Assembly: GCF_003334385.1 (NCBI RefSeq) | Contig: NZ_QOWN01000006.1 | Strand: one strand, 5' to 3' | DNA length: 64,000 nt | Origin: Escherichia coli | GTDB lineage: Bacteria > Pseudomonadota > Gammaproteobacteria > Enterobacterales > Enterobacteriaceae | In this document: positions 1,165 to 23,669 of the stretch, piece after piece | How the letters are laid out: each line of letters begins with the position of its first letter | Position numbering within the stretch: position 1 is the stretch's first letter | The notes under the pieces: generated by a model | Databases searched by the model: none | What the model saw: the letters and a program-made list of their open reading frames with translations, nothing else | Told to the model about the DNA's origin: nothing | Position numbers and translations under genes: made by a program

Positions 1165-1394
1165 AAAATATCATTCCTGATTACCGTCTTGATATGGTGG
1201 GTGAACCCTGCCCTTATCCGGCAGTCGCAACCCTTGAGGCGATGCCGCAGTTAAAAAAAGGTGAGATCCTGGAAGTGGTGAGCGACTGTCCGCAGTCGAT
1301 CAATAATATTCCACTGGATGCTCGTAATCACGGCTATACGGTGCTGGATATTCAGCAAGACGGGCCGACCATTCGTTATTTAATTCAGAAGTAA
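1161..1394 (+). CDS. yedF: TusA-like sulfur-carrier protein YedF
   Basis: 77 aa ORF with conserved CPxP motif (GEPCPYP); start overlaps yedE stop (ATGA); RBS aaggag upstream. Confidence 0.9.
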   Translation: MKNIIPDYRLDMVGEPCPYPAVATLEAMPQLKKGEILEVVSDCPQSINNIPLDARNHGYTVLDIQQDGPTIRYLIQK

Positions 1395-1502
1395 TCCCTC
1401 ATTCCCGCTGTGGCCAACAGCGGGAATATCGTTGCCTCTGTACCACATAGATTTTACCCGCCCCCTCTCCTATTCTTTTCAGTGTGCTCTCAGGAGGTTG
1501 CT

Positions 1503-2171
1503 ATGTGTGGACGCTTTGCCCAATCCCAAACGCGTGAAGATTACCTTGCGCTTCTCGCGGAAGATATTGAACGCGATATTCCCTATGATCCCGAACCCAT
1601 TGGCAGATACAACGTCGCGCCGGGAACCAAAGTTCTTCTGCTCAGTGAACGTGATGAACACCTTCATCTGGATCCGGTTTTCTGGGGATATGCTCCCGGA
1701 TGGTGGGATAAACCGCCGCTGATTAACGCCCGCGTAGAAACTGCGGCCACCAGTCGTATGTTTAAACCGCTCTGGCAACATGGTCGGGCAATCTGTTTTG
1801 CCGATGGCTGGTTTGAGTGGAAAAAAGAAGGCGACAAAAAACAGCCTTATTTTATCTATCGTGCTGACGGACAACCTGTTTTTATGGCCGCGATAGGTAG
1901 CACACCGTTTGAGCGCGGTGACGAAGCCGAAGGATTTTTAATTGTCACTGCAGCAGCAGACCAGGGTCTGGTAGATATTCATGACCGCCGCCCGCTGGTA
2001 CTGTCGCCAGAAGCTGCGCGGGAATGGATGCGGCAAGAGATTGGCGGTAAAGAAGCATCAGAAATTGCTACCAACGGCTGTGTGCCAGCAAACCAGTTCA
2101 CCTGGCACCCGGTATCGCGCGCGGTAGGTAATGTCAAAAACCAGGGCGCGGAGTTAATTCAACCTGTTTGA
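1503..2171 (+). CDS. yedK: SOS-response-associated peptidase (abasic-site crosslinking protein) YedK
   Basis: ORF track gives 1410..2171; true N-terminus MCGRF (catalytic Cys2) at ATG 1503 preceded by RBS caggagg. Confidence 0.85.
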   Translation: MCGRFAQSQTREDYLALLAEDIERDIPYDPEPIGRYNVAPGTKVLLLSERDEHLHLDPVFWGYAPGWWDKPPLINARVETAATSRMFKPLWQHGRAICFADGWFEWKKEGDKKQPYFIYRADGQPVFMAAIGSTPFERGDEAEGFLIVTAAADQGLVDIHDRRPLVLSPEAAREWMRQEIGGKEASEIATNGCVPANQFTWHPVSRAVGNVKNQGAELIQPV

Positions 2172-2563
2172 TAAGCCAGGAGACTATTGATCAATAATAC
2201 TGCGTCATAAGAAATCTCTATTAGACAAAGTAGACGCTCCTTCCACATGCGCCACAAGAAACCTCTATTCCAGTGACACAATTACGCCTGATTATTTCCC
2301 TAGCCCGGAATATGAATAAAAACATCAACAAAGATTAAATTATTCAAACGTTACTGTTGCGTCTGCGGTCGTAACAACATCCGACGTGGTGATGTGTATC
2401 AAATGAGGCCTCTGATGATCAGAGGGTTTATCGCGTATACGGATCGTGGATGGCAGAAAACTTTCAGAATCAGGTTTCCATTTTAAACCAGAAATTGAGT
2501 GAGTTTGCCCCATCCATGCCCCACGCGGTGAGATCGGATGTAATTAACAACAGGTTACAAAAC

Positions 2564-2878
2564 CTACACCTGCATGCTCATCACTTCCTGATACGCCGCC
2601 ACCAGCTTATTACGCACCTGAATCCCCATTTGCATAGAAACTGAGGCTTTTTGCATATCGGTCATCACATCGTTTAACGCCACGCCGGGTTCACCGAGAG
2701 TGAATTTTTCTGCCTGCGTGCGGGCAGCTGTTTGTGTATCACTAATGCGATCGAGCGCGGCGTGCAGCTGCCCGGCAAAACTAATGGTCGGTTGCGGCAG
2801 TGATTCCTGCGCACGCGCACTCATCGCCGTAGCCTGTAACTGGCTGATAACCCCTTCAATCCCCTGTATCGCTGACAT
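2564..2878 (-). CDS. fliE: Flagellar hook-basal body protein FliE
   Basis: 104 aa starting [13 protein letters not shown] track ORF trimmed to the internal ATG (cat at 2876-2878 on + strand). Confidence 0.9.
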
Positions 2879-3092
2879 TCTCGTCTCCCGGATAATTTCT
2901 GGTAGCAAAGCCTACCAGTAAGTCAATAAGACAAAGGCGCTAAATAACAACAAAAAAACGGGTTTATTGGCGGATAGAAAAAAACGAAAGCACAAATAAT
3001 GGGAGCGTCAATTTTTCGAGTTTGCTGACCCGGGAGTGAGTCTTGTTCCACTTTGCCAATAACGCCGTCCATAATCAGCCACGAGGTGCGCG
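2879..3092. promoter_or_regulatory. Divergent fliE / fliF promoter region (class 2 flagellar promoters expected)
   Basis: 214-bp intergenic region between divergently transcribed fliE and fliFGHIJK; no individual boxes pinpointed. Confidence 0.45.
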
Positions 3093-6417
<3,325 letters not shown>

Positions 6418-6418
<1 letters not shown>

Positions 6419-7791
6419 TGACCACGCGCCTGACTCGCTGGCTAACCACGCTGGATAACTTTGAAGCCAAAATGGCGCAGTTGCCTGCGGTACGTCGCTA
6501 TGGGCGATTAACCCGCGCTACCGGGCTGGTGCTGGAAGCCACCGGATTACAATTGCCGCTCGGCGCAACCTGTGTCATTGAACGCCAGAACGGCAGCGAA
6601 ACGCACGAAGTAGAAAGCGAAGTCGTTGGCTTTAACGGTCAACGGCTGTTTTTAATGCCGCTGGAGGAAGTGGAAGGTGTCCTGCCCGGCGCGCGGGTTT
6701 ATGCCAAAAACATTTCGGCTGAAGGACTGCAAAGCGGCAAGCAGTTGCCGCTCGGTCCGGCGTTATTAGGTCGCGTTCTGGACGGCAGCGGTAAGCCGCT
6801 CGATGGCCTGCCCTCCCCCGATACGACGGAAACCGGTGCGCTGATTACCCCGCCATTTAACCCGTTGCAACGTACACCGATTGAACATGTGCTGGACACC
6901 GGCGTGCGCCCAATCAATGCCCTGCTTACCGTTGGGCGTGGGCAGCGTATGGGGCTGTTTGCCGGGTCCGGCGTTGGTAAAAGTGTGCTGCTGGGGATGA
7001 TGGCACGTTACACCCGCGCCGATGTCATTGTCGTGGGTTTGATTGGTGAACGCGGACGCGAAGTAAAAGATTTTATTGAGAATATCCTCGGTGCCGAAGG
7101 GCGTGCACGCTCCGTGGTGATTGCCGCTCCGGCGGATGTCTCTCCGCTTCTGCGAATGCAAGGTGCCGCCTATGCCACGCGCATTGCCGAAGATTTTCGC
7201 GATCGTGGTCAGCATGTGTTGCTGATTATGGACTCCCTCACCCGCTACGCGATGGCCCAGCGTGAAATTGCGCTGGCGATTGGCGAACCACCCGCCACCA
7301 AAGGTTATCCCCCGTCGGTGTTTGCCAAATTACCGGCACTGGTCGAGCGTGCCGGAAATGGCATTAGCGGCGGCGGATCGATTACCGCGTTTTATACCGT
7401 GCTCACCGAGGGCGATGACCAGCAGGACCCCATTGCCGACTCCGCGCGGGCAATCCTCGACGGTCACATTGTGCTGTCTCGCCGACTGGCGGAAGCCGGG
7501 CACTATCCGGCTATCGATATTGAAGCGTCGATCAGCCGCGCAATGACGGCGTTGATCAGCGAGCAACATTACGCGCGAGTGCGCACCTTCAAACAGCTGT
7601 TGTCGAGTTTTCAGCGTAACCGAGATCTGGTTAGCGTCGGCGCGTATGCCAAAGGCAGCGATCCGATGCTCGATAAAGCCATCGCCCTGTGGCCGCAGCT
7701 GGAGGGCTATTTGCAACAAGGCATTTTTGAACGCGCGGACTGGGAAGCGTCTCTCCAGGGGCTGGAGCGTATTTTCCCGACAGTGTCATAA
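6418..7791 (+). CDS. fliI: Flagellum-specific ATPase FliI
   Basis: 457 aa; Walker A GSGVGKS encoded at about 6964-6984; start overlaps fliH stop. Confidence 0.95.
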
Positions 7792-7809
7792 CCCAGGAGA
7801 TAACGGCAG

Positions 7810-8253
7810 ATGGCAGAACATGGCGCGCTGGCGACCCTGAAAGATCTGGCAGAAAAAGAGGTAGAGGATGCCGCGCGCCTGCTGGGTGAAATGCGTCGCG
7901 GGTGTCAGCAGGCGGAAGAACAGCTCAAAATGCTGATCGATTATCAGAATGAATATCGCAATAACCTCAACAGCGATATGAGTGCCGGGATGACCAGCAA
8001 CCGCTGGATCAACTATCAGCAGTTTATCCAGACGCTGGAAAAAGCCATTACTCAGCATCGCCAGCAACTTAATCAGTGGACGCAGAAAGTTGACATTGCC
8101 CTGAACAGCTGGCGAGAAAAGAAACAACGTTTGCAGGCCTGGCAGACACTGCAGGAACGGCAATCCACGGCGGCACTGCTTGCAGAAAACCGCCTCGATC
8201 AGAAAAAGATGGATGAGTTCGCCCAGCGCGCCGCCATGAGGAAACCTGAATGA
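7810..8253 (+). CDS. fliJ: Flagellar export chaperone FliJ
   Basis: 147 aa coiled-coil protein in the expected position. Confidence 0.9.
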
Positions 8254-9377
8254 TTCGCTTAGCGCCCTTAATTACCGCCGACGTTGACACCACCACATTG
8301 CCTGGCGGCAAAGCCAGCGATGCTGCACAAGATTTTCTCGCGTTGTTGAGCGAAGCATTAGCAGGCGAGACAACTACCGACAAAGCGGCCCCCCAGTTGC
8401 TGGTGGCAACAGATAAGCCCACGACAAAAGGCGAGCCGCTGGTCAGCGAGATTCTTGCCGATGCGCAACAAGCGGATTTACTGATCCCTGTGGATGAAAC
8501 ACCGCCTGTCATCAACGACGAACAATCCACATCAACACCATTAACCACCGCTCAAACGATGACGATGGCTGCGGTGGCTGGCAACAATACGGCAAAAGAC
8601 GAAAAAGCGGATGATCTGAATGAAGACGTCACCGCAAGCCTGAGCGCCCTTTTTGCGATGTTGCCGGGTTTTGACAATACGCCCAAAGTGACTGATGTGC
8701 CGTCAACCGTGTTACCGGCAGAGAAACCAACGCTCTTCACAAAACTGACTTCTGCGCAACTCACAACAGCACAGCCTGATGATGCCCCCGGCACGCCAGC
8801 TCAGCCATTAACACCGCTGGTAGCAGAAGCCCAGAGTAAAGCGGAAGTCATCAGCACACCTTCACCGGTGACCGCTGCCGCCAGCCCGCTAATCACTTCA
8901 CACCAGACACAGCCACTGCCCACCGTCGCCGCGCCTGTGTTGAGTGCACCGCTGGGTTCTCACGAATGGCAACAATCATTAAGCCAGCATATTTCGCTGT
9001 TCACCCGCCAGGGGCAACAAAGTGCAGAGTTGCGTCTGCACCCGCAGGATTTAGGTGAAGTGCAAATCTCCCTCAAAGTGGATGATAACCAGGCGCAAAT
9101 CCAGATGGTTTCACCGCATCAACACGTACGCGCCGCCCTGGAAGCAGCGCTTCCGGTACTGCGAACGCAGCTGGCCGAAAGTGGCATTCAGTTAGGGCAA
9201 AGCAACATCAGTGGCGAAAGCTTTAGTGGTCAGCAGCAGGCCGCTTCCCAACAACAGCAAAGCCAACGCACAGTAAACCATGAACCTCTGGCGGGGGAAG
9301 ACGACGATACGCTTCCGGTTCCCGTCTCTTTACAAGGGCGTGTAACAGGCAACAGCGGCGTTGATATTTTCGCCTAA
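8250..9377 (+). CDS. fliK: Flagellar hook-length control protein FliK
   Basis: 375 aa, Pro/Thr/Ala/Gln-rich central region, conserved C-terminal domain; 4-nt overlap with fliJ. Confidence 0.9.
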
Positions 9378-9444
9378 CGTCAGAGATAGCACCGTAATCC
9401 GCGTCTTTTCCCCGCTTTGTTGCGCTCAAGACGCAGGATAATTA

Positions 9445-9452
9445 GCCGATAA
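9445..9452 (+). promoter_or_regulatory. Sigma28-like -10 element GCCGATAA upstream of fliL
   Basis: Exact GCCGATAA 30 bp upstream of fliL ATG with TCAA 15 nt further upstream (consensus TAAA-N15-GCCGATAA). Confidence 0.3.
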
Positions 9453-9481
9453 GCAGTAGCGACACAGGAAGACCGCAACAC

Positions 9482-9946
9482 ATGACTGATTACGCGATAA
9501 GCAAGAAAAGCAAGCGATCGCTTTGGATCCCGATTCTGGTATTCATTACCCTCGCGGCCTGTGCCAGCGCAGGTTACAGCTACTGGCATTCGCATCAGGT
9601 TGCCGCTGACGACAAAGCGCAGCAACGCGTCGTACCCTCCCCGGTCTTCTACGCGCTGGATACCTTCACGGTCAATTTGGGCGATGCGGATCGCGTGCTT
9701 TATATCGGCATAACCCTGCGCCTGAAAGATGAAGCTACCCGCTCGCGGCTGAGTGAGTATTTGCCGGAAGTCCGTAGCCGTTTGCTGTTACTGTTTTCGC
9801 GTCAGGATGCTGCCGTACTGGCGACAGAAGAAGGCAAGAAAAACCTGATTGCCGAGATTAAAACCACGCTTTCCACCCCGCTTGTTGCCGGGCAACCGAA
9901 ACAGGATGTCACCGACGTGCTGTATACCGCTTTTATTCTGCGATAA
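9482..9946 (+). CDS. fliL: Flagellar basal-body-associated protein FliL
   Basis: 154 aa with single N-terminal transmembrane segment. Confidence 0.9.
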
Positions 9947-9950
9947 CGAC

Positions 9951-10955
9951 ATGGGCGATAGTATTCTTTCTCAAGCTGAAATTGATGCGCTGTTGAATGG
10001 TGACAGCGAAGTCAAAGACGAACCGACAGCCAGTGTTAGCGGCGAAAGTGACATTCGTCCGTACGATCCGAATACCCAACGACGGGTTGTGCGCGAACGT
10101 TTGCAGGCGCTGGAAATCATTAATGAGCGCTTTGCCCGCCATTTTCGTATGGGGCTGTTCAACCTGCTGCGTCGTAGCCCGGATATAACCGTCGGGGCCA
10201 TCCGCATTCAGCCGTACCATGAATTTGCCCGCAACCTGCCGGTGCCGACCAACCTGAACCTTATCCATCTGAAACCGCTGCGCGGCACAGGGCTGGTGGT
10301 GTTTTCACCGAGTCTGGTGTTTATCGCCGTGGATAACCTGTTTGGCGGCGATGGACGCTTCCCGACCAAAGTGGAAGGTCGCGAGTTTACCCATACCGAA
10401 CAGCGCGTCATCAACCGCATGTTAAAGCTGGCGCTTGAAGGCTATAGCGACGCCTGGAAGGCGATTAATCCGCTGGAAGTTGAGTACGTGCGTTCGGAAA
10501 TGCAGGTGAAATTTACCAATATCACCACCTCGCCGAACGACATTGTGGTTAACACGCCGTTCCATGTGGAGATTGGCAACCTGACCGGCGAATTTAATAT
10601 CTGTCTGCCATTCAGCATGATCGAGCCGCTACGGGAATTGTTGGTTAACCCGCCGCTGGAAAACTCGCGTAATGAAGATCAGAACTGGCGCGATAACCTG
10701 GTGCGCCAGGTGCAGCATTCACAGCTGGAGCTGGTCGCCAACTTTGCCGATATCTCGCTACGCCTGTCGCAGATTTTAAAACTGAAACCCGGCGACGTCC
10801 TGCCGATAGAAAAACCCGATCGCATCATCGCCCATGTTGACGGCGTCCCGGTGCTGACCAGTCAGTACGGCACTCTCAACGGTCAGTATGCGTTACGGAT
10901 AGAACATTTGATTAACCCGATTTTAAATTCTCTGAACGAGGAACAGCCCAAATGA
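9951..10955 (+). CDS. fliM: Flagellar motor switch protein FliM
   Basis: 334 aa from MGDSILSQAEIDALL (ATG at 9951); ORF track start 9849 is an upstream extension overlapping fliL. Confidence 0.9.
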   Translation: MGDSILSQAEIDALLNGDSEVKDEPTASVSGESDIRPYDPNTQRRVVRERLQALEIINERFARHFRMGLFNLLRRSPDITVGAIRIQPYHEFARNLPVPTNLNLIHLKPLRGTGLVVFSPSLVFIAVDNLFGGDGRFPTKVEGREFTHTEQRVINRMLKLALEGYSDAWKAINPLEVEYVRSEMQVKFTNITTSPNDIVVNTPFHVEIGNLTGEFNICLPFSMIEPLRELLVNPPLENSRNEDQNWRDNLVRQVQHSQLELVANFADISLRLSQILKLKPGDVLPIEKPDRIIAHVDGVPVLTSQYGTLNGQYALRIEHLINPILNSLNEEQPK

Positions 10956-11365
10956 GTGACATGAATAATCCGGCCGATGACAACAACGGCGCAATGGACG
11001 ATCTGTGGGCTGAAGCGTTGAGCGAACAAAAATCAACCAGCAGCAAAAGCGCTGCCGACGCGGTGTTCCAGCAATTTGGCGGTGGTGATGTCAGCGGAAC
11101 GTTGCAGGATATCGACCTGATAATGGATATTCCGGTCAAGCTGACCGTCGAGCTGGGCCGTACGCGGATGACCATCAAAGAGCTGTTGCGTCTGACGCAA
11201 GGGTCCGTCGTGGCGCTGGACGGTCTGGCGGGCGAACCACTGGATATTCTGATCAACGGTTATTTAATCGCCCAGGGCGAAGTGGTGGTCGTTGCCGATA
11301 AATATGGCGTGCGGATCACCGATATCATTACTCCGTCTGAGCGAATGCGTCGCCTGAGCCGTTAG
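10952..11365 (+). CDS. fliN: Flagellar motor switch protein FliN
   Basis: 137 aa; 4-nt overlap with fliM. Confidence 0.95.
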   Translation: MSDMNNPADDNNGAMDDLWAEALSEQKSTSSKSAADAVFQQFGGGDVSGTLQDIDLIMDIPVKLTVELGRTRMTIKELLRLTQGSVVALDGLAGEPLDILINGYLIAQGEVVVVADKYGVRITDIITPSERMRRLSR

Positions 11366-11367
11366 TG

Positions 11368-11733
11368 ATGAATAACCACGCTACTGTGCAATCTTCCACG
11401 CCGGTTTCTGCTGCGCCACTGCTGCAGGTCAGCGGCGCACTCATCGCCATTATTGCCCTGATCCTCGCTGCTGCCTGGCTGGTAAAACGGTTGGGATTTG
11501 CCCCGAAACGCACTGGCGTTAACGGTCTGAAAATTAGCGCCAGTGCTTCGCTGGGCGCGCGTGAACGGGTTGTGGTGGTCGATGTGGAAGATACACGGCT
11601 GGTGCTCGGCGTTACCGCAGGGCAAATCAATCTGCTGCATAAACTTCCCCCTTCAGCACCAACAGAAGAGATACCGCAGACCGATTTTCAGTCGGTCATG
11701 AAAAATTTGCTTAAGCGTAGTGGGAGATCCTGA
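11368..11733 (+). CDS. fliO: Flagellar biosynthesis protein FliO
   Basis: 121 aa from ATG 11368 (MNNHATV); alternative GTG at 11365 overlaps the fliN stop. Confidence 0.8.
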
Positions 11734-12470
11734 TGCGTCGTTTGTTGTCTGTCGCACCTGTCCTTCTCTGGCTGGTTACGCCCCTCGCCTTCGCGCAACT
11801 GCCGGGTATCACCAGCCAGCCGCTGCCTGGCGGTGGACAAAGCTGGTCGCTCCCGGTGCAGACGCTGGTGTTCATCACCTCGTTGACGTTTATTCCGGCA
11901 ATTTTACTGATGATGACCAGTTTCACCCGCATCATCATTGTTTTTGGTTTATTGCGTAACGCGCTGGGAACGCCCTCCGCGCCACCTAACCAGGTATTGC
12001 TGGGGCTGGCACTATTTTTGACCTTTTTTATTATGTCACCGGTGATCGATAAAATTTATGTCGATGCGTACCAGCCATTCAGCGAAGAGAAAATATCAAT
12101 GCAGGAGGCGCTGGAAAAAGGGGCGCAGCCGCTACGTGAGTTTATGCTGCGTCAGACCCGTGAGGCAGATTTAGGGTTGTTTGCCAGACTAGCGAATACC
12201 GGCCCGTTGCAGGGACCTGAAGCCGTGCCGATGCGCATTTTGCTCCCGGCCTACGTGACCAGCGAGTTGAAAACCGCATTTCAGATAGGCTTCACGATTT
12301 TCATTCCTTTTTTGATTATCGACCTGGTGATTGCCAGCGTGTTGATGGCATTGGGGATGATGATGGTCCCCCCCGCCACCATTGCTCTGCCCTTTAAACT
12401 GATGCTGTTTGTACTGGTGGATGGTTGGCAATTGCTGGTCGGTTCGCTGGCGCAGAGCTTTTACAGCTAG
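11733..12470 (+). CDS. fliP: Flagellar export apparatus protein FliP
   Basis: 245 aa with signal-like N-terminus and conserved membrane core. Confidence 0.95.
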
Positions 12471-15090: not shown

Positions 15091-15177
15091 AAATCCCGAC
15101 CCTGAGGGGGTCGGGATGAAACTTGCTTAAGCAAGAAGCACTTAAAAAATTCGTTACACCAGGAAATCTGATGTGTT
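15091..15177 (-). ncRNA. dsrA: DsrA small regulatory RNA (Hfq-dependent regulator of rpoS and hns)
   Basis: Reverse complement reads AACACATCAGATTTCCTGGTGTAACGAATTTTTTAAGTGCTTCTTGCTTAAGCAAGTTTCATCCCGACCCCCTCAGGGTCGGGATTT, matching the recalled DsrA sequence including the terminal GC hairpin and U-tract. Confidence 0.9.
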
Positions 15178-23578: not shown

Positions 23579-23669
23579 CTTTTTATTATTCTGTGTCATG
23601 ATGCTTACGTTATTAGCCTTTTATCGTCTTGTTTATATTTTTTGGGCCGGCATGATGCCGGCTTTTTTT
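23579..23669 (+). ncRNA. rseX: Candidate RseX-like small RNA in the yedR-porin intergenic region
   Basis: Intrinsic terminator (gccggca-tga-tgccggc then seven T) at 23646-23669 with no + strand CDS to terminate; I recall RseX mapping between yedR and yedS; 5' end is a guess. Confidence 0.4.

Follow-up and report, generated by a model that had tools for sequence, protein, structure and literature searches.

Phage 21 and e14 integrate into the 3′ end of icd and leave a duplicated gene end. The locus described here resembles these systems in that a lambda-type integrase acts at the 3′ end of a protein gene, the gene end supplied by the phage saves the host protein, and a pseudo gene-end lies at the far junction, as in Enterobacter cloacae (locus L056). 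It differs from them in that the target is fliE and not icd, and that the far-junction copy is gone in E. coli. The intG/yedL/yedN region of E. coli K-12 is the same locus with the same integrase stub, and its flanks are 95-97% identical. In the K-12 record (NC_000913.3), the pseudogene intG is tagged "cryptic prophage PR-G", so that this part is already known as a cryptic prophage remnant; the label is on intG only, and the att core is undefined in the record. The phages IdasGreatGrand and CobraSix and the prophage of E. coli UTAK-1 have an integrase family in common with the stub (Arm-DNA-bind_2 plus Phage_integrase). These elements are intact and 38-48 kb in size, whereas only 45 int codons are left at our locus. 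IdasGreatGrand and the UTAK-1 prophage share one and the same attP core, of which CobraSix has a diverged version. Gifsy-2 (sseI and an SRAP pseudogene) and PHB10 (int-attP-SRAP-umuDC) both carry an SRAP gene with the same upstream region as yedK beside att, and in Gifsy-2 the effector gene lies beside the SRAP gene on the opposite strand, but both differ from our locus in integrase and att site. In the open-access literature searched, an incomplete corpus, neither fliE as a site of phage attachment nor yedK as a component of this relic was found described. SRAP genes in prophages were noted earlier by Aravind and colleagues (PMC3765255).

A stretch of 64,000 nucleotides of E. coli DNA (the window) was analysed, and its features are listed in Table 1. 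We consider it very probable that the segment from the yedF hairpin to the fliE stop codon (about 1428-2563) is what has been left by the collapse of at least one lambdoid prophage. In the proposed course of events, phages would have integrated into the last codons of fliE by tyrosine-integrase recombination. Of the integrase end, only a stub of 45 codons (intG), joined to the att core, would have been left, and of the far end the cargo gene yedK; the middle would have been lost. K-12 and O157 would keep more of the cargo, namely the acetyltransferase gene yedL and LRR effector genes of the EspR type, and in the lineage of the window two further deletions, of 603 bp and about 1,212 bp, would have produced a 392-bp mosaic. 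The intact core would still work as attB, and an attP with the same 36 bp would be expected to recombine within about 2579-2583 and to rebuild the fliE end Met-Ser-Met-Gln-Val-stop. The junction is an ordinary prophage relic and a common allele of a known variable locus, and a new mechanism is not needed.

An earlier note on this DNA had described a short gap between the convergent genes yedK and fliE without an ORF. The gap is indeed short (2172-2563, 392 bp) and contains no real gene, the small ORFs in it not being credible as genes. The note had also proposed a search for a cryptic tRNA or sRNA. In 1300-3200, ARAGORN predicted no tRNA gene and no Rfam model matched at E ≤ 1, and the consensus scan found no promoter-like or terminator-like sites inside the spacer. 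The GC content of the spacer is 41.8% versus 53.8% for the whole window, which was counted as support for a prophage origin. The Rfam scan of the whole window gave DsrA, RseX and two tRNA genes, as expected for this part of the E. coli chromosome.

Table 1. Features of the window and related coordinates. Positions are those of the window unless a locus is named; "(.)" means that no strand is assigned.
Feature	Position (strand)	Remark
yedE	ends at 1164	
yedF	1161-1394	
Hairpin just 3′ of the yedF stop	1401..1427 (.)	self-complementary in blastn
Putative far-side junction zone, degenerate (attR expected)	1428..1460 (.)	core copy not recognisable
Conserved region upstream of the SRAP gene	1461..1502 (+)	travels with yedK-like genes in prophages
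The same conserved stretch, other loci	L089 6955-7000; L090 about 1772-1813; L056 11826-11865	
yedK, SOS response-associated peptidase	1503..2171 (+)	inferred att-proximal cargo gene of old prophage
yedK 3′ flank and truncated upstream flank of lost yedL module	2172..2230 (+)	= K-12 L003 2491-2549
Remnant of yedL-yedN intergenic region	2231..2297 (+)	= K-12 L003 3153-3219, 94% identical
Remnant upstream of yedN/EspR-type LRR gene	2298..2410 (+)	contiguous with K-12 L003 4436 onward; no coding similarity found
Hairpin	2409..2425 (.)	at 5′ truncation edge of integrase remnant
3′ remnant of lambda-type tyrosine integrase gene (= K-12 intG)	2411..2545 (+)	residues 387-431 of 434
att core, attB	2548..2583 (.)	overlaps fliE stop codon and last six codons
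fliE	2564..2878 (-)	stop codon 2564-2566; 3′ end = phage target
fliF	3093-4751	
Rfam/tRNA matches, whole window	15091-15177 (-), 23580-23669 (+), 32494-32580 (-), 33572-33644 (+)	

The earlier note had placed accessory genes and a defective integrase at this junction in K-12. This layout was right. NC_000913.3 has yedK, yedL, yedN (pseudogene), intG (pseudogene) and fliE at the locus; yedK and fliE are not adjacent there and are separated by 2,210 bp. The blastn comparison showed that all 392 bp of the spacer are present in K-12, as three pieces. Positions 2172-2230 are the 59 bp after K-12 yedK, positions 2231-2297 are the 67 bp between yedL and yedN, and positions 2294-2563 are the last 270 bp before fliE, intG included. 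The K-12 surplus consists of two separate segments, one of 603 bp that holds yedL and one of about 1,212 bp that holds yedN, and it is these that the window lacks. The integrase-associated cluster, which had been thought to be missing from the window, is absent only as far as yedL and yedN are concerned; the intG remnant is present at 2411-2545. At the same place, PGAP calls a partial "integrase" in near-identical compact strains.

When the spacer was compared with a phage collection by blastn, the integrase gene of IdasGreatGrand matched at 86.7% over 2400-2583 and CobraSix matched more weakly. The matches were to the integrase and the fliE end only, and 2172-2399 remained unmatched in this collection. 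In both phages, the matched region is the 3′ end of an integrase gene that lies after an excisionase gene. By blastx of 2411-2545, 40 of 45 residues (89%) were identical to the Int of Escherichia phage IdasGreatGrand (E = 4e-23) and 36 of 43 to that of Enterobacter phage CobraSix, and no integrase codons were found upstream of 2411. The intact Int of IdasGreatGrand has the domains PF12167 (Arm-DNA-bind_2) and PF00589 (Phage_integrase). The remnant is not an intact integrase; it holds only the last 45 of 434 codons and is a pseudogene stub. An 11-nt deletion took out the integrase stop codon. The 64-aa ORF at 2450-2644 (+) is the "intG" frame of K-12 (b1936), and it runs antisense through the 3′ end of fliE because this deletion removed the stop. 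The part of the ORF that overlaps fliE is not integrase sequence. The nucleotide homology runs 37 nt beyond the phage int stop, across the fliE stop.

An att core was found at 2548-2583, where 34 of 36 positions match phage attP. It consists of CAACAGGTTACAAAACCTACACCTGCATG (2548-2576), two mismatches and CATCA (2579-2583), and the similarity ends abruptly after 2583. The integrase stub followed by the core (2411-2583) places an att core at the int end of the phage-derived sequence. DNA annotated as "intergenic" can thus be described as an integrase stub and a 36-bp attB overlapping the fliE stop codon. The insertion point lies outside the spacer, in the last codons of fliE (2579-2583). The earlier note had proposed a search for att-like repeats, and such a search gave the core but no second copy in the window: with a 21-nt core and ≤5 substitutions, only the copy at fliE was found, and none near yedF. 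A short match, 'TGTGGTACAGA', at 1428..1460 to other Escherichia loci was too weak to interpret. The likeness of 'ATGTGGTACAG' near yedF to the fliE end was a visual resemblance and was set aside as too weak. The similarity between K-12 L003 4471-4492 and 4674-4695 (22/17-nt; window 2333-2354 and 2536-2557) was also considered as an att relic, and it was at chance level.

E. coli UTAK-1 carries a complete P22-like prophage of 38.7 kb inserted exactly at the core. The order of genes is fliE, int-xis, the prophage ending in a tailspike gene, an old int remnant, an intact LRR gene, yedK and yedF. The integrase of this prophage is intact, and it is 98% identical to the IdasGreatGrand gene. The four junction sequences fit the products of attP × attB recombination exactly. 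The host CT (2577-2578) stays at the far junction, and the phage GA now lies beside fliE. This reciprocal exchange indicates a crossover in or near CATCA, and we infer that it occurred within 2579-2583. At the fliE-side junction, ...EVMSMQV-stop is still encoded, and the fliE coding sequence is kept. The complete prophage with its reciprocal junctions shows that the insertion spot is still in use. Since the window and the attB implied for UTAK-1 are one base apart, the core of the window should be usable as attB. Strains with the compact allele should then be lysogenisable by phages with an IdasGreatGrand-type integrase, with fliE unharmed. Four more E. coli genomes have a 78%-identical integrase adjoining fliE.

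Empty and occupied sites were compared across genera. FliE was scanned in one genome per species; 80 loci were retrieved and then searched by tblastn, the species representatives of E. coli and E. fergusonii not being among them. A full-length integrase of the same family adjoins fliE in 12 of the 80 representatives, and integrase remnants are present at fliE in 7 more; prophages next to fliE occur in representatives of Citrobacter, Enterobacter and Leclercia. The empty state was seen in 15 of the 80 loci, where the convergent genes fliE and yedF are only 52-100 bp apart and the spacer usually has a single hairpin. Many Citrobacter species have this short spacer, as do Kosakonia, Phytobacter, Dryocola, Buttiauxella and others. 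About 11 loci, from Enterobacter, Leclercia and relatives, have yedD after fliE at a distance of ~75-90 nt. The tblastn search showed that yedK is absent from all empty-site loci. The hairpin at 1401..1427 of the window corresponds to the single hairpin of the empty yedF-fliE spacers, and a similar fliE-yedF hairpin is present in Citrobacter braakii (L025) and in locus L029.

In five other Escherichia genomes (E. whittamii, E. albertii, Escherichia sp. E1V33 and two divergent genomes that carry the label "E. coli"), the fliE-yedF interval is filled with different sequence, and yedK is absent from it. Their homology to E. coli stops at the yedF hairpin (K-12 L003 1744, about 1425 in the window) and resumes only at the integrase remnant or the core. 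The proposed far boundary of the prophage rests on this comparison with other species and not on a repeat in the window.

A relic of this kind is present in Enterobacter cloacae DSM 26481 (L056), where a decayed fliE prophage at 7309-12215 has both junctions readable. From fliE onward there follow remnants of an integrase, an acyltransferase-like ORF, a fragment of umuC, yedK, the far junction and yedD. The yedK of this relic is 86% identical (aa) to that of the window and lies just inside a clean attR. The far junction consists of a P′ arm that matches the attP of CobraSix, the duplicated fliE end TGATGGGCCCGCAGGTGTAA, a normal host spacer and yedD. The window yedK is 85% identical to the PHB10 gene beside int-attP and 80% identical to the gene at the right end of Gifsy-2. 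Once integrated, the int-attP-SRAP order of PHB10 would give the same order and orientation as in the window. In Gifsy-2, the SRAP gene is near the right end, beside the effector gene sseI. PHB10 itself was rejected as a fliE-targeting carrier of yedK: its Int is only 44% identical, and the int-SRAP interval is without the fliE core. In the regions fetched of the two free phages with a window-type integrase, no SRAP gene was found. Overall, yedK probably arrived with a phage as att-proximal cargo, and the integration that brought it may be another than the one that left the integrase stub. E. coli, PHB10, Gifsy-2 and the E. cloacae relic have in common a conserved stretch of ~40 nt upstream of their yedK-like genes (...CTGCCCTATACTTTCAGTCTGAC...GGAGGTTTCTATG). 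Nucleotide homology upstream of yedK starts at 1461 in comparison with Gifsy-2 and at 1463 in comparison with the E. cloacae relic. This stretch could be a promoter or a regulatory site common to these genes.

E. coli yedK is the standard bacterial model of the SRAP/HMCES proteins, which crosslink to abasic sites. We find it reasonably likely that yedK is stranded cargo of a fliE prophage and not an ancestral repair gene, and that the fliE 3′ end is a widespread, undescribed att site in Enterobacteriaceae. The gene would have been stranded when the far att site was deleted, and it is now nearly universal in E. coli, although truncated in about a fifth of the genomes. If this is true, the native role of YedK may be related to the phage; it might, for instance, protect or sense damaged single-stranded DNA when the prophage is induced. 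The comparison points to prophage cargo as the source of yedK, yedL and the EspR-type effector genes. Such an origin would matter for the interpretation of the weak or absent phenotypes of E. coli yedK mutants and for taking yedK as a "chromosomal" HMCES model.

A full-length yedK is present in 4,257 of the 5,426 complete E. coli genomes, and a truncated one in about 1,120. Such a pattern is more like that of a decaying relic than that of a core gene. In the truncated genes (about 21% of the complete genomes), the break is at nt 437, or at 363 by IS1. In many of these strains, emrE-ybcL-ybcM lie between the integrase stub and the truncated or IS-disrupted yedK (L004 16494-19803, L005 8001-13392); in K-12, these genes are part of the DLP12 prophage. 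At L005 8657-10253, an IS200/IS605 element (TnpB and TnpA pseudogenes) overlaps the last yedK codons and gives a YedK variant of 223 aa in some strains.

The exact compact junction, with both segments absent, was present in 1,015 of the 5,426 complete genomes (19%). CP53 is a strain with this junction, and O103-type and bovine strains appear among those that have it. The yedL-absent junction was found in the same 1,015 genomes. The yedN-absent junction was found in 1,148 genomes, so that about 133 (e.g. PD4) have yedL without yedN. The deletion junctions are blunt or have ≤4 nt of microhomology, and the junctions alone do not show the direction of change. Evidence on direction comes from another Escherichia species (L013), in which yedL is 79% identical and yedK is absent. 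The block of homology in this species starts 88 nt before yedL, and the motif 'CATAAGAAA.CTCTATTAGACAAAG' continues directly into the yedL leader. The window keeps this motif (2206-2230) and then breaks off. The break where L013 continues indicates that the window holds a truncated yedL module. In K-12, the order SRAP(+), acetyltransferase(+), effector(-) mirrors the right end of Gifsy-2. With moderate confidence, we believe that the compact form is probably a deletion derivative, which is likelier than two precise insertions.

The reverse direction would make the compact relic the older state within E. coli, with yedL and the LRR gene inserted later as cassettes at 2230/2231 and 2297/2298. 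We regard this as unlikely. The homology block of the other species reaches 37 nt into sequence that the window keeps, although the junctions are precise and without microhomology and the 22-nt imperfect repeat flanks the yedL position, as might be expected of insertions. The SRAP(+), effector(-) order shared with the right end of Gifsy-2 suggests a joint arrival. Intermediates do exist, since PD4 has yedL without yedN and UTAK-1 has the LRR gene without yedL, but the yedL-absent junction never occurs without the yedN-absent one, both being seen in the 1,015 genomes. Two deletions from a longer relic remain the preferred reading of the compact junction.

The imperfect direct repeat is 22 nt long with 19 of 22 positions identical, and its copies are TGCGTCATAAGAAATCTCTATT at 2201-2222 and TGCGCCACAAGAAACCTCTATT at 2248-2269, 47 nt apart in the window. 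In K-12, the copies are at L003 2520-2541 and 3170-3191, on either side of yedL. UTAK-1, in which yedL is absent, has one copy. By our estimate, ~3e-4 such pairs are expected by chance in 550 bp. No further copies were found elsewhere in the 64-kb window. An origin of the repeat by tandem duplication was rejected, the 25 nt after each copy being unrelated.

The small hairpin that the earlier note had pointed out at 2409-2425 is real: it is a perfect palindrome of 8+8 nt (2409-2416/2418-2425). When folded, it gives a stem of 7 bp and a loop of 3 nt, at -14.1 kcal/mol with its flanks and z = -3.15 versus shuffled sequences. The hairpin falls in the H-S-D-A-Q codons of the integrase remnant, and intact phage int genes already have a version of it with a 5-bp stem (TCTGA-TGC-TCAGA). 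The simplest reading is that the integrase coding sequence produces it as a by-product. That the spacer is a selected non-coding element, be it a small RNA or a terminator formed by this hairpin, is very unlikely. The stability above shuffled controls would suit such an element, and the stem is longer in the lineage of the window than in the phage coding sequence, but a 5-bp stem pre-exists in the coding sequence of the intact phage int, and the K-12 copy of the hairpin differs in sequence. The terminator scan gave no U-tract or site at 2409-2425, only three U on the + strand following the stem. Likewise, the absence of Rfam matches at E ≤ 1, of promoter-like sites in the scanned region and of terminator-like sites in the spacer speaks against a non-coding element.

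The earlier note had suggested that the compact junction may be the unoccupied form of an insertion hotspot. The hotspot stands, with intact prophages at fliE in some E. coli and in 12 of the 80 species representatives, and the junction varies among strains and is tied to an integrase. The unoccupied form does not stand: the 3′ remnant of an integrase is fused to the att core, and truncated flanks of the yedL and yedN modules are also kept. An ancestral unoccupied site, to which K-12 added yedL, yedN and intG as one integrase-borne island, is extremely improbable, for although the extra genes are indeed in K-12 and the locus is a genuine integration site, intG is present in the window, the K-12 surplus lies in two separate segments and not in one island, and truly empty sites are without yedK and without the int stub.

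In E. coli O157:H7 F7349 (L091), part of the locus is present twice. A 1.96-kb tandem duplication, with copies that are 95% identical, occupies 6428-8369 and 8386-10326. Within the duplicated unit lie a portion of yedL, an LRR gene of the EspR type and the integrase stub, and the duplication has given rise to espR3 and espR4 together with a second integrase remnant.
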